A DNA stretch of 64,000 nt from Escherichia coli (GCF_016026235.1 NZ_CP065614.1), one strand, 5' to 3'; counted from the stretch's first letter, positions 54,001 to 60,000 are shown. Numbers: made by a program.

Positions 54001-57000
54001 TTTATAAATGAGATCTGCCATGCCACTGATTGCTTTGATCTTGCAGGCCGGGATTACAAAATAGATCCTGATTTACTGAGAGCAATATCATGGAAAGAAT
54101 CCCGTTACCGGGTTAATGCCATCGGTATTAATCCGGTAACGGGATATGGCAGCGGACTGATGCAGGTAGATTCCCAGCATTTTAACGAACTGGCCCGCTA
54201 TGGAATTAAGCCGGAACATCTGACAACAGATCCCTGCATGAACATTTATACCGGTGCTTATTATCTGGCAATAGCCTTTAAAAAATGGGGCGTCTCCTGG
54301 GAGGCCGTTGGTGCATACAATGCCGGATTCAGGAAGACCGAACGCCAGAACCAGAGACGTCTTGCCTACGCATCAGATGTTTACCGGATTTATACCGGGA
54401 TAAAAAGCAGTAAAGGTATCCGAATTCCGACCACGAAGAAATCACTTCCGGAAATTAACAGCGTGCAGAACAATTAATCTTACAGACATTGTCAGATACC
54501 GGTTATGCCGCAAAAGCGGCATGGAAGTCCACACACAAAAATATCATATGAGTGACAATACTGACTGGCCGAAGCCCCGCGAAGCGGGAACCCATCTTAT
54601 ATATACCCGGTAACTGCGCAGCCTCCTGCCAGACCATTTTTCGCGGGCACAATATTTACAGACAACCGGAAAGCCAGTTGATGAAATTGAGGTATATCAG
54701 ACGACACAGCGATGCCGAAGAATGATAATATAAGTAAAGCCCCGAAAATTTTTCGGGGCTTTACTTATATTATCATGACTTCCACTTTCTGAACTGTTCG
54801 GCAATCACCCATAACGCCTTGTTGATTCTTATATCACCATCAATACCTGTAATGGCTCTTGTCCTGGTATTTTTCCCGGAGGCACTTCGCCACGATAATC
54901 CACCTTTTATCATATTCTCCTGAACCCGCTGCCAGGTTGTCCAGAGATCGTTCTGTTTATCCTCCCGACGACGGGGAGTAATTATTTGTTCAGGCGTCAC
55001 TGGCGTTTTATTTTCATCTTCATACCTGACCATCAGTGCAGCTCTGCCAAATAAATGTTGCTCGTCACTGTTAAGATGAATTTCTTTCATCGCCTCCATA
55101 TTTTCAGTGACCTTATCAAAGACACCGAGCACTTCATACGCTCCCTCGATAACCTGCCCGACAATATCACCTTTATGTGGAACGCGAATTTCGCCAAAAT
55201 TATTTCCGCACACCAGGCCATTTGTGCAGACAAAACGAAAAATTCCGGGGATCATCTGATAACTGGATGAACCATCGTGTGAATTAAGCAGGATAATTTC
55301 AGGAACTTCCTGCCCGTTAATATGCCCTTCCCTGCGAAGACGTAACATATGTTTACTGTATTCGCGACGTCCCAAATCACGAACCCGACTCTGACAGGCA
55401 AAGAATGGCTGGAAACCTTCATCACGTAACTTATTGATGATATTGATTGTTGGAATATACGTATAACGTTCACTCCGGGACTCATGTTTATCACCGGAAA
55501 ATACCGAAGGCACGAACTGCATTAATTCATCATCCGTTAAAGGACGTTCACGGCGGATGGAATTATACCGACCAAAACGGGAAGCTAATCGCATAACAGC
55601 TACTCCTTTATGAAAGCATAAATTTAATAAAAAATTTTTCCGCTTAATATCATCCCTCCCGGTTTCCATTAACAAGATTACAACAATCAGGAGGGATATT
55701 CATCACATCCGGTCAGCAGATCGCCCGGATATCGAGGCCGGCACGCTTAATCTGACGCAGGAACTGTTTGAAGTGATCGGCTTCCGCAATGTTGATATGG
55801 CGGAACTGCGTATCCACACCCCGGCTGAGCGCGTAGCTATAGCTGAAGGCCATCTTTTCCGGGTGGCTTTTGCGATATTTTTTCAGCTCAGTCAGGCTGC
55901 TGAATTCCAGGACGTCCCACTCTTCCCCGGTGTTTTTTTTCTTCCCGGCAACAAAAAGCGTGTACGACGCGGTGTTAACGTGGATATTTCGGGTACTCAT
56001 CCTGCTTTCTCCTCTTTCTGGTTTTCAGCCCCCATCATCGGTTGAGTTTCGGGAGCCGCGGTTTTGACGTTTTGCGGGGACCTGCCTTTTGTTCCCTCCG
56101 GTATTCACCATCACCTTTTTGAGAACCTTCGCCGCAAGGGGCATCACTGCCACGGCCGGAAACGACTGTCCGGGGATGTACATTTCCCCCCTGGACTGGC
56201 GGAGACGGTTGTGGCTGTCTTTGCCCCCGGCGACAGGGGCTTAAACAGGTGAATGGCACCGGACACAACAACGGGCAGGGACCCGCCGCAACGACGTGAA
56301 GCGCGGTTTGCGAAACGGCGTTGCGCCTTACATCCCGGCGGCCTTTTGCCGGGATGCAGGGAGCGCAGGCCACGGCGCGACAGAGGCGGCGCGACCGGAA
56401 CGGTCGCTGCAAGCCCGGGGTTTCGCGTCAGGGATGGAAGCGTGCGACTGAAAGTCGCTTCAGATATTGATTTGCGTAGACATATGACAAATCCCGCTAT
56501 TCCGGTAGCGGTAGCCTAATCAGAATGGCGTTGCTGGTAACGGCAAGGTCATAAGCTCTGATGACAACGTACTCTCCCTCAGGAAGGGTAAGTCGAGCCG
56601 TGAGGTGAGACGATCGTCTGCAAGCATCATGCGGACAGGAGGCAAGGCTGATCGGTATGGTTAACACACGTGAACCAGTGATAAAGATCATAACCCTGTA
56701 ACAGGTCAAAGATGCTGATAGACCTGAACTAAAAGGTGTGAGGCTGGTTATCCTATGCTTCCTGAGGATACCCGGACACTAAAGCCTCTGGTCGAGAGCT
56801 GGAACCTAACCCGATCTGTATCTGAAGTGAAAACAGGTAAGCCCGTACTTTTGCCCTCAGGGCAAGCGAACCGTAAGGAACGCTGTTGAAAATGCGGGTA
56901 GAGGAGGATGGAAAAAGCAAATGGCCATCTGTAATGGATGGTATAGGGGTTCAAAATTTGCCCTAACGCGAAAGCGTGCAGACTTCCATCTGGTCTTTAA

Positions 57001-60000
57001 TCACATGAAACGCCGGAAAGCAGTCTGAAACAGGAGGCAGGCAAGATGAACACGCTAATTAAGGTGTCTGCGGCCCCGCACCTCGGTAGCTGGCACACCA
57101 TCAACTGGAAGCGACAGTACCGAACGGTGAGACGGCTCCAGACGCGGATTGTGAAGGCAACACAGGAGAAGCAATGGCGTAGAGTCAAAGCTCTGCAACG
57201 TCTGCTGACCCGCTCGTTTGCAGCCAAAGCACTGGCTGTCAGACGGGTTACTGAGAACTCCGGGCGTAAAACCCCGGGAATCGACGGAAAAACTTGGAGC
57301 ACGCCGGCAGAGAAATGGAATGCTATCAACAACCTGAGGAGAAACGGCTATAAACCGAGTCCTCTGAAGCGAGTATATATTCCCAAATCCAATGGCAAAC
57401 TCCGCCCGCTGGGTATCCCCACGATGAAAGACAGAGCTATGCAAGCGCTCTACCTGCTCGCTCTGGAACCTGTCGCGGAAACGACTGCGGATCGTAACAG
57501 CTACGGCTTTCGTCCCCACAGAAGTTGTGCTGATGCAATCGAACAGGTTTTCAACAATCTGAACCGGAAAACATCGGCAACGTGGGTTCTGGAAGGGGAT
57601 ATTAAAGGGTGTTTCGACAATATCAGTCATAAATGGTTACTGGAGCATATCCCTATGGATAAACGGATCCTCCGTAGCTGGCTGAATGCCGGATTTATGG
57701 AAAAAGGAAGATTGTTCACTACTGACGCTGGTACACCTCAGGGTGCCCCCTGCTCACCAGTACTGGCAAATATGTGCCTGGACGGACTGGAAACAATTCT
57801 GACGAACCGTTTCGGGCGGAAAGGCACAGCCAAGGCCAGTAAATCCAAAGTGAACTATGTGCGTTACGCCGATGATTTCATTGTGACAGGAATTTCGCGA
57901 GAAATACTGGAAAGCGAAGTAAAACCGCTTATAACTGCATTCATGCAGGAAAGAGGGTTGCTCCTGTCAGAAGAAAAAACGACGGTTACTCACATAAATG
58001 ACGGCTTTGACTTTCTTGGACAAAATGTCAGGAAATACAAGGGGAAGTTACTTATAAAACCCTCTAAACATAACCTGAAAATGTTCCTTAATAAGATTAG
58101 AGCCACCATCGAAGGTAATAAAACTGCCAAAACAGACACACTGTTCAAACGGCTAAACCCTCTGATCAGAGGTTGGACCAACTACCACCAACATGTAGTG
58201 GCAGCCGAAACCTTCAGGTACGTCAACTTCCAACTCTGGAAAAAGATATGGCGATGGTGTCTCAGGAGACATCCTTCCAGAGGTAAACGATGGATACGCC
58301 GCAAATACTTCGACGAAAGCTGGAGGCTTCACTCGAAGGACGCCGACGGTCATCGTTGGGTACTGTATAAAGCATCGACAATACCTATACGACGCCACAT
58401 CAAAATAAAATCCGAAGCAAATCCATACGCCCCCGAGTGGGAGTCTTATTTTGAGAAAAGACAGGCATTGATATGGCTGAAATCTCAAAATGGCAGAAAC
58501 AGGATTGTAGCAATATGGAGAAAACAGGAAAAACGCTGCCCAATATGGGGACAATCGTTCAGCCAGGAAACGGGTTGGGATATCCATCACATTGTGCGAA
58601 AAACACAAGGGGGGAGCGACAATCTGGATAATCTAGTGATGCTGCATCCGAACTGCCACCGTCAACTCCACCACAGTAGTGAAACCGGCTCTCAGTATTG
58701 GGGGCTTATAAAGGCTTGAGCGGAGTGCGGGGAAACTCGCACGCTCCGTTCTTAGGGGGCGGCGGCGCAGCAATGTGCCGCTGCTACCCGACCCGCCAAG
58801 GCGGAGACAGCTTCGCTGGCTCCGTTCACGACAGCCAGCCCCGCCAGGGGGACGCCCGGGAAAGCCATAAACAGGAGAGGAGAGGAACGGAAAGAAGAAG
58901 AGGAAGAAGAACAATAACAGGCACGGTAACCACAGAAAAATAACATCAGAAAAAAATATTCCGGACACATCATAAACGGGAAGGGTAACGGGCGACGCGT
59001 CAGCGAGGCCCGCTTCCCTTCCGGCAGGCGTCAGCCTGCCAGGGGTTTTCGCGCGGGCTGACAGGCGGCCTCCACCGCCTGCCCTGTATCACCTGTGCCT
59101 GCTGCCCTGAAGGATGTAGTGACCACCGAGGAAAACCGCCTGCTGATTCGCCACAAAATCGCAGATTTCATCAACAATCTGCGCGGTGGTGAGCGGTTTC
59201 TGCCCCATTTCACGACGCCGCGCATTAATCACGGCCCTGTAATTACGCAGAATTTCGCGGGTTTCTGTGCTGATATTCATGACATGTGCTCCCCGTCCAG
59301 CGCCTGTAACACAACGTCCATTGCTTCGCGTTCCTCCCTGACGAATGCGTCACCGTCGCCCCCGTTCTCACTCCCGACGGCATACAGGCGCTTCATTTCA
59401 CTGCCTGCCAGCGCCATCACTTTTTCCAGCATCACCGCAGGGACTGTTACAAGACGGTTTACGCGCTTTTCCTCCATCAGTTCATTGACAATATCGGAAA
59501 CAACTCTGTCACATGCGCCATATACAAAAGCATCGTCCAGCCGCTGCATGACGGTTTCCAGCTCATCGTCTGTCAGACTCCAGTCCTGGGCTATGTGACG
59601 CACATCCCCACGGGTCAGCACCACGGCAAAAACAAATTCACTGTCCGGCACGTCTGTATCCAGTACATCGCGGATAATTTCTTTAACAGTACATGTTCTC
59701 GTCTCCTTTACAGGGGCGGCATTGCCGCCCCGTCCGTTAATCAGTCCAGTGCCGCGTAAATCGCGTTGCATTCAGGGTGAAATACGATGTGACGCCACAA
59801 CTGCGCATCGCGCATCCGGTAAAGCTGGGTCAGTCCTGCATCCCCGCTGTCGTGGTACAGCCACAACTGGCGGTTAATCACAAGAGAAGTCAGAATGATG
59901 CCTGCGGCATCAGCACTCACGGTACGGTCAAACCAGTTTGCACCGTTCACCATGTGGAAACGGTCGCCATCCGGCATCATGTAACCGCCACCGTCCGGCA

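Follow-up and report, generated by a model that had tools for sequence, protein, structure and literature searches.

An apparently intact and probably mobile group II intron in the flank of a predicted single-strand promoter in the leading region of an F-like Escherichia coli plasmid

We examined a group II intron in a stretch of 64,000 nucleotides of Escherichia coli DNA (NZ_CP065614.1; hereafter the window, to which all coordinates refer) that belongs to an F-like conjugative plasmid, as indicated by Rfam matches to the traJ 5' untranslated region and FinP at 52974-53085. The intron lies in the leading region beside a GC-rich island, and an earlier sequence-only reading had proposed both that it is intact and that the island could act as a single-strand promoter. 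We consider it likely that this is an intact, probably mobile intron of subgroup IIB1 with a protein of the CL1 lineage, inserted by site-specific retrohoming into the distal flank of Frpo1/ssiD, a promoter known from the F plasmid. Such an intron would be a selfish passenger in a target that is safe, non-coding, conserved and widely distributed, and not a disruptor of the promoter next to it.

The ends of the intron could be fixed to the base. The intron-less plasmid pSJ_94 (L001) provides an empty site, in which the left flank aligns up to 56441 and the right flank from 58792, with one shared base; the exact ends were set from the position of this base by the GUGYG...AY rule. The resulting intron begins with GTGCGAC and ends with CCCGAC, and the join in pSJ_94 corresponds to 56441 followed by 58793. 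Two covariance models from Rfam match within these limits: RF02012 (group-II-D1D4-7) at 56493-56642, with 120.9 bits, and RF00029, the model of domains V and VI, at 58716-58792, with 60.1 bits and ending exactly at the inferred 3' end. A consensus fold was then built from the ribozymes of nine introns, deleted of their open reading frames (ORFs), comprising that of the window and eight plasmid relatives with protein identities of 53% to 90%. This fold recovers all six domains, each with compensatory pairs in which both sides have changed, including domains I to III and VI, whose absence would have spoken against an intact ribozyme. The intron and its parts are as follows.

56442-58792, + strand: complete group II intron, 2,351 nt (empty site in pSJ_94, Rfam matches, nine-intron consensus fold)
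56448-56836, + strand: domain I (intron 7-395), from the consensus fold; 13-bp helix with 9 of 13 pairs covarying
56841-56899, + strand: domain II (intron 400-458), consensus helices with compensatory changes
56906-56991, + strand: domain III (intron 465-550), consensus helices with compensatory changes
56992-58716, + strand: domain IV, closed by the helix 56992-56999/58709-58716 (intron 551-558/2268-2275), its loop holding the protein gene
57046-58719, + strand: intron-encoded protein of 557 aa with reverse transcriptase (RT), maturase (X) and HNH domains and no frameshift
58718-58751, + strand: domain V, 34 nt (intron 2277-2310), from RF00029 and a 14-bp consensus helix; starts GAGC
58755-58789, + strand: domain VI (intron 2314-2348), 15-bp consensus helix with 10 of 15 pairs covarying

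The catalytic AGC triad of domain V is at 58719-58721, and the branch point of domain VI is a bulged, unpaired adenosine (58786), with the 3' splice site 7 nt away. Domain V had been described as following the stop codon of the intron ORF; it is present with the expected length, though it overlaps the TGA stop (58717-58719).

The intron ORF is preceded by an AGGAGG Shine-Dalgarno sequence upstream of its ATG. Its 557-aa product contains the Pfam domains RVT_N, RVT_1, GIIM and HNH, scores 380 bits against a cut-off of 300 with TIGR04416 (the NCBIfam equivalog for group II RT/maturases), and has YADD at residue 274 and the HNH motif at residues 514-543; the Pfam domains, the equivalog and the motifs thus agree with the complete, unshifted protein that had been proposed. 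The best solved relative is the T.el4h RT (6ME0_C; E = 1e-187 over residues 15-545), with weaker matches to LtrA of the ML lineage (2e-40) and GsI-IIC (3e-35). With fixed ends, six domains, exon pairings (below) and a full-length protein, the proposal of an intact intron is well supported: ribozyme and protein both appear structurally intact, and the intron can probably still splice and move.

The exon-binding sites (EBS) were located by aligning domain I with that of an EcI5-like copy (L008), using the published EBS2a and EBS2 positions of EcI5 (PMC8643678). Together with the intron-binding sites (IBS) in the flanking exons, they define the following homing site.

56428-56441, + strand: homing-site half that lies in the 5' exon; complementary to EBS2a, EBS2 and EBS1
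56428 (position -14), + strand: IBS2a T, pairs with EBS2a A251
56429-56434 (-13 to -8), + strand: IBS2 CAGGGA, pairs with EBS2
56436-56441 (-6 to -1), + strand: IBS1 GGAAGC, pairs with EBS1
56692-56698, + strand: EBS2a A251 and EBS2 ACCCUG (intron 252-257), EBS2 alone occupying 56693-56698
56757-56762, + strand: EBS1 GCUUCC (intron 316-321)
56796, + strand: EBS3 G355, pairs with IBS3 C at 58793
58793-58878, + strand: 3' exon, the rest of the Frpo repeat unit, with IBS3 (C) at 58793; matches both F Frpo copies

The sites pair with the flanking exons; a failure to do so would also have spoken against the earlier proposal. EBS1 and IBS1 form six of six pairs, EBS2 and IBS2 five of six, EBS2a and IBS2a an A:T pair and EBS3 and IBS3 a G:C pair; the one mismatch, at the first position of EBS2, falls in the same place as in EcI5. 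In the relatives the corresponding columns are complementary to each intron's own exon. For example, a sibling intron discussed below has EBS1 GGACAC against GTGTCC and EBS2 AUCGGC against GCCGAA, with a U that pairs with A-14, and the intron L010 has UCGUAG against CTACGA and CAGAG against CTCTG. The column of G355 is complementary to exon base +1 in eight of the nine introns, and G355 is therefore taken as EBS3. A rival placement of EBS2 at intron 134-138 (UCCCU, complementary to AGGGA) was rejected, as the EcI5-like alignment gives 251-257, whose columns covary with the exons. If the intron works as EcI5 and T.el4h do, the excised lariat with its bound protein would reverse-splice into the strand bearing the IBS, after which the HNH domain would nick the opposite strand and so prime cDNA synthesis.

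We assign the intron to subgroup IIB1 with a CL1-lineage protein, an assignment made without a formal phylogeny, because the T.el4h RT is the closest solved relative, the RF02012 class is common to the window intron and the EcI5-like copy L008, and the EBS3 and EBS2a features are those expected: the pairing of EBS3 with +1 lies in domain I, as in IIB and IIC introns, instead of the delta-delta' pairing of IIA, and an EBS2a-IBS2a pair is present at -14. Subgroup IIC, whose members target hairpins or terminators, lack EBS2 and an endonuclease domain and insert directly behind a DNA stem-loop that they recognize, was ruled out, since EBS2 and HNH are both present and the Rfam class is that of the EcI5-like copy. 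The gene in the window intron is already labelled ltrA in identical plasmid records, and the intron is an ordinary relative of EcI5 and T.el4h. It resembles EcI5 (E.c.I5 of pO157, IIB1/CL1) in its RF02012 class, as judged from the L008 copy, in the RT-X-HNH layout (56% protein identity to that copy), in the arrangement of EBS2a, EBS2 and EBS1 with the mismatch at the first EBS2 position, and in its residence on an F-type plasmid. However, EcI5 has a different target, between sopB and distal leading genes and without Frpo similarity nearby, and has the same orientation as the leading genes, opposite to that of the window intron; moreover, the mobility of EcI5 was shown by experiment (PMC8643678), whereas that of the window intron is predicted from sequence. 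The RT of T.el4h (Th.e.I3 of Thermosynechococcus, IIB1/CL1; PDB 6ME0, 6MEC) is the solved protein closest to that of the window, but T.el4h resides in a cyanobacterial chromosome and is compared here only for lineage and mechanism. Ll.LtrB, in the relaxase gene of pRS01, is likewise a group II intron on a conjugative element, and its spread is reported to be tied to conjugation. In contrast to the window intron, which is intergenic and antisense, Ll.LtrB is a IIA/ML intron in sense orientation inside a coding gene, and its host gene needs splicing.

We also examined the island into whose flank the intron is inserted, together with the leading genes that adjoin it.

56021-56441, + strand: proximal part of the Frpo repeat, homologue of F Frpo1/ssiD (96.8% identity to F Frpo1, 81% to Frpo2)
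56323-56364 and about 56388-56410, + strand: two small hairpins in the distal Frpo flank, between ssiD and the intron
55713-56000, - strand: ygeA (98.9% aa identity to the F protein)
54773-55675, - strand: ygeB (DUF932; 98.5% aa identity to the F protein)

Two published sequences were located here: the ssiD of F (D90178; given in supplementary file 4 of Samuel et al.) at 56029-56330 and, at 56021-56238, the segment of Frpo2 that was enough to drive an anti-CRISPR gene off the transferred strand in the construct of Samuel et al. The whole left flank from 53800 to 56441, from the SLT transglycosylase gene through Frpo1, is 96.8% identical to F, and its sub-segment 56021-56441 also matches F Frpo2, at 81%. 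The GC content is 0.61-0.68 across 56100-56400. Folded as single-stranded DNA, the segment 56030-56441 reaches -115.5 kcal/mol (z = -6.0; none of 100 shuffles was equally stable), forming on the + strand a main hairpin at about 56045-56316 followed by the two small hairpins, and the segment of the latter is conserved in the F, IncI and E. albertii Frpo copies. The GC-rich segment of about 400 bp had been described correctly, and the two inverted repeats quoted for it were located at 56323-56339/56348-56364 and 56287-56297/56315-56325. Early transcription from single-stranded DNA after transfer is known for F Frpo1 and Frpo2 (PMC9849209), and Frpo1, which lies upstream of ygeA and ygeB, is required for their early post-transfer expression (Couturier et al., PMC9849209). 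By homology, the island is the plasmid's copy of the Frpo1/ssiD promoter for ygeA and ygeB, in agreement with the role in single-strand transcription that had been proposed for it. The two genes, by the same comparison, would be leading genes driven by the adjoining Frpo and form the context of the intron, outside it.

The strand relationships follow from the layout of the plasmid. With the tra genes directed toward lower coordinates, the leading region is on the side of the higher ones, and since this region enters the recipient first, 5' to 3', the transferred strand (T-strand) is the + strand of the window. The leading region location that had been proposed is borne out by the neighborhood, which adjoins oriT, traM, ygeB and ygeA. 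The leading genes are on the - strand, with the T-strand as their template; the hairpin is on the T-strand, and ygeA and ygeB are directly downstream. Couturier et al. (PMC9849209) and Samuel et al. give the same strand layout for F.

Relative to this promoter, the intron starts 111 nt past the end of ssiD and 203 nt past the minimal Frpo2 construct. This places it to the upstream side of the promoter, beyond the main hairpin (56045-56316), which stays uninterrupted. The insertion is nevertheless still inside the Frpo repeat, as the 87 nt at 58792-58878 past the intron match both F copies, and F carries the uninterrupted target (GCGTCAGGGATGGAAGC directly followed by CCGCCAGGGCGG) at Frpo1 and at Frpo2. 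The insertion point is a site-specific homing site within the repeat and not a chance neighborhood. The sense strand of the intron, with the IBS, is the T-strand; the intron occupies a non-coding spacer and is antisense to the leading genes, and therefore cannot splice out of their transcripts. The suggestion that the insertion may alter early leading-region expression found no support in these distances or in the location outside the hairpin, and the intron is presumably neutral for the expression of the leading genes. A change in the promoter itself is more likely to matter. The window Frpo1 lacks 48 nt of the hairpin tip near 56165-56175, an A/T-rich sub-hairpin (GCAGACCGCAAAA...GGCAAAAAGTTTTGCGG) that is present in F Frpo1, Frpo2, ColIb-type copies and both E. 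albertii copies, and that is kept in most other plasmids. This loss may weaken the promoter independently of the intron, to which it is unrelated. Hexamers considered as candidates for the -35 and -10 boxes, against which to judge the deletion, were not convincing and were discarded. Compared with F, the window island is in the same place as Frpo1, upstream of ygeA and ygeB, but the window has a single hybrid unit (Frpo1-proximal, Frpo2-distal) with the tip deleted and the region from ssb to hok missing. Just past the repeat unit, at 58870-58930, is a purine-rich GA/GAA tract, whose equivalent in F Frpo2 is longer; the equivalent in the plasmid NZ_CP093550.1 (L014) is a GCAGTA tandem repeat resembling the variable 6-bp 'yddA' repeat (PMC6052338).

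Evidence of movement comes from close relatives of the intron. Full copies with at least 99% identity occur in about eight plasmid records, which are of large plasmids from E. coli and Shigella boydii, pCFSAN029787_01 among them, and several of these are 99.7-100% identical to the window intron; a variant with 90.7% identity occurs in four E. albertii records, from bats, and has a different domain VI with compensatory changes. Two of the E. albertii plasmids, pESA134_1 and pESA134_2 (L006 and L007), are co-resident and carry introns at 4001-6350 without a single difference in 2,350 nt. BLAST detects no match between the two left flanks, and there are 12 differences in 484 positions of the right flanks. 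In pESA134_2 the intron occupies the homologous position in a Frpo-like hairpin that has diverged strongly (z = -10.2, with the tip conserved) and lies upstream of different genes (a methylase cluster), and the target there is imperfect (GGAAAC and GTGGGA, with mismatches at -2, -12, -13 and -14). Because identical introns are found in two co-resident plasmids with different flanks, there is good indirect evidence, drawn from genome comparison, that this lineage is, or recently was, mobile.

A second lineage uses the same flank. In about 1,000 plasmids the match to the window intron is limited to its final 88-93 nt, which are 100% identical; these plasmids carry a sibling intron of 2,343 nt with 67% DNA and 61% protein identity to that of the window. 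The segment 58705-58792 of the window, comprising the end of the ORF and domains V and VI, is 100% identical to the sibling and the rest about 67%, which, with the different domain VI of the 90.7% variant, suggests recombination between the two intron lineages. The first 300 nt of the sibling are found in 1,014 plasmid records, and the number of records with a 150+150-nt junction of Frpo flank and intron is likewise 1,014. The length of the sibling matches that of a group II intron reported as a presence/absence marker in FII-33 plasmids (PMC8765060, PMC6052338). The sibling on the IncI plasmid pPWD4_103 is next to ardA and follows a ColIb-type Frpo, and there, too, the orientation is antisense to the leading genes. 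The IncFII CTX-M-14 plasmid NZ_CP093550.1 has four Frpo copies, three of which have an IncI-type distal flank and are all occupied by the sibling (4204-6546, 13728-16070 and 19407-21749; 100% identical, with 0 differences); the fourth (7579-8047) has an F-type flank and a vacant site for the window intron. The three copies form 2.3-kb direct repeats around ssb, psiB and hok. Thus the sibling (pHN7A8/FII-33 and IncI plasmids; L002, L014) resembles the window intron in lying in the leading region, antisense, in the distal Frpo/ssi flank, but it targets the IncI-type flank, about 230 nt past ssiD in L014, versus 111 nt in the F-type flank for the window intron. It also differs in EBS1 and EBS2, and is common (1,014 plasmid records) where the window intron is rare (about 13). 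The two lineages thus insert at different positions, one in each of two versions of the flank, and both are oriented with the T-strand.

More distant relatives do not share this habit. No Frpo similarity was found beside the EcI5-like copy L008 or beside L009 to L013, and homing to the Frpo flank is therefore confined to two lineages among the relatives examined. Equally close relatives are found elsewhere, with L009 on an IncX3 plasmid and L010 beside hok/sok. The latter (E. albertii p1RM9976, 60% protein identity) is inserted at 2380, within the annotated hok/gef range of 2243-2413, where it adjoins the sok RNA in the same orientation as hok.

The orientation shared by the two lineages raises the possibility that homing is coupled to conjugation. 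The intron particle would then reverse-splice into the single-stranded T-strand, either in the recipient or in the displaced strand of the donor, and complementary synthesis would copy the RNA; the Frpo flank would be favored for its early exposure as a single strand, and the T-strand-sense orientation would be required and not an accident. We counted it in favor of coupling that introns which need no endonuclease, such as RmInt1, and introns of subgroup IIC exploit the single-stranded DNA of replication forks. The IBS is on the T-strand in every copy inspected (the window, L002, L004 to L007, L014 and L015), at two target positions, and two lineages about 60% identical in protein are both in the Frpo flank, with the equally close L009 and L010 elsewhere. 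In an evolution experiment, a putative group II intron, carried by the resident plasmids, appeared on a newly introduced plasmid in two replicates, at the same position next to the ssi3 operon (PMC10104558); this intron may be the sibling. However, the apparently intact HNH domain indicates that double-stranded targets are open to the intron in the ordinary way, the target sequence dictates the orientation, which was sampled at just two independent sites, EcI5 is in the opposite orientation although it too is at the edge of an F-type leading region, and the three identical sibling copies in one plasmid need no conjugation. The T-strand-sense orientation is compatible with invasion of the incoming single strand, and the earlier suggestion that the intron is positioned to retrohome during conjugation is plausible, but ordinary double-stranded homing fits equally. 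Coupled homing is therefore doubtful in our estimation, and it is with similar reserve that we put forward a small CL1/IIB1 clade specialized on the Frpo/ssi flank and oriented with the T-strand owing to invasion of a single strand in conjugation.

Several observations weigh against a mobile intron that is neutral for its surroundings. The uninterrupted 200-nt stretch spanning the site is present in at least 3,189 plasmid records, compared with about 13 occupied ones (13 plasmid records cover at least 80% of the intron), which suggests low activity or a recent, restricted spread. All inspected E. coli and Shigella copies are at one locus, compatible with vertical inheritance of one old insertion. 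There is no consensus sigma-70 promoter on the + strand upstream of the intron; the sole + strand consensus match in 55600-59400 (55624-55653) falls inside ygeB and was rejected as a promoter for the intron, the total of matches being below chance expectation. Finally, the neutrality of the insertion for Frpo function is argued from its position only. Most of these points, along with the presence of a full copy in only 4 of 5,426 complete E. coli genomes and the truncation or insertion sequence (IS) interruption of several relatives, would also suit an immobile relic, that is, one ancestral insertion that was vertically inherited and is no longer expressed or mobile. We regard this as improbable, since the ORF, catalytic motifs, ribozyme domains and exon pairings are all intact, the 90.7% variant shows recent movement between two plasmids, and several copies are 99.7-100% identical to the window intron. 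An intact and probably mobile intron remains the better account.

The leading region around the intron is compact. To the right of the intron is the sequence that in F lies upstream of Frpo2 (orf63, DUF1380 and a klcA-type antirestriction gene; 92.7% identity), and tblastn found no match to ssb, yfjA/B, psiB or hok in the window; psiA is also absent from it, judged by position. The leading region at 56021-60230 is a fusion of Frpo1 and Frpo2. With F as the reference, the sequence left of the intron resembles Frpo1 to about 56420 and that on the right resembles Frpo2 from about 58814, so that the switch brackets the intron. This, the absence of ssb, psiB, yfjA/B and hok, and the occupation of several Frpo flanks of one plasmid by the sibling intron would all fit recombination between an intron copy in the flank of Frpo1 and another in that of Frpo2, an event that deleted ssb, psiB, psiA and hok and left one intron. 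However, the same fusion of ygeA, Frpo and orf63/DUF1380 occurs in at least 86 intron-less plasmids, and recombination between Frpo repeats alone is therefore sufficient; with the closer reference pSJ_94, moreover, the interval that holds the switch becomes wider and takes in some (about) 100 nt of flank as well as the intron. An intron-mediated deletion from ssb to hok was accordingly set aside as the main story and is, in our view, quite improbable. The fusion, shared by these intron-less plasmids, is natural evidence for the Frpo-Frpo recombination predicted by Couturier et al. (PMC9849209).

Terminator-like hairpins are more frequent in 55600-59400 than in shuffled sequence (11 versus 4.5 +/- 2.0), and most of them are on the - strand inside the intron, antisense to it, at 56494-58554. 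These might seem to fit co-option of the intron as a regulator or insulator that keeps transcripts of klcA, DUF1380 and orf63 from Frpo1 and ygeA/ygeB, or that modulates single-strand folding, but the consensus matched in the scan is weak, more than 99% of the plasmids with the locus lack the intron and nothing suggests selection for its presence, so that co-option is very improbable.

Other features of the window near the intron are given here for completeness.

53171-53554, - strand: traM, next to oriT and the leading region
53875-54477, + strand: SLT transglycosylase gene

At 60864-61633 there is also a degenerate remnant of a second group II intron, one that belongs to a different class. 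It consists of frameshifted RT fragments at 60864-61067 and 61128-61484 and a match to Rfam group-II-D1D4-2 at 61515-61633 (119 bits), in an odd order of parts, and it is flanked by putative transposase-like ORFs, an IS4-like fragment at 60185-60838 on the - strand and another at 61578-62246 on the - strand.

In the searchable open-access literature we found no link between group II introns and Frpo/ssi, bar one incidental paper, and the Frpo flank as a homing niche for group II introns therefore appears to be a modest observation that is undescribed there. The context is more useful than the intron itself, as two lineages occupy two positions in one Frpo/ssi flank. The Frpo/ssi repeat is present in thousands of IncF and IncI plasmids, many of which carry resistance or virulence genes, and for the window intron alone it provides an abundant natural target, with more than 3,000 plasmid records vacant. 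Homing to this flank explains why group II introns recur as presence/absence markers of leading regions, and occupancy by several copies creates 2.3-kb direct repeats in the leading region that could drive deletions of ssb, psiB and hok. The T-strand-sense orientation raises the question of whether these introns can invade incoming DNA in the course of conjugation. If they do, the hairpin repeat of IncF and IncI leading regions would give retroelements a natural point of entry while a plasmid is being transferred, and F, with its two perfect vacant sites, would be an experimental system for single-strand-targeted retrohoming.

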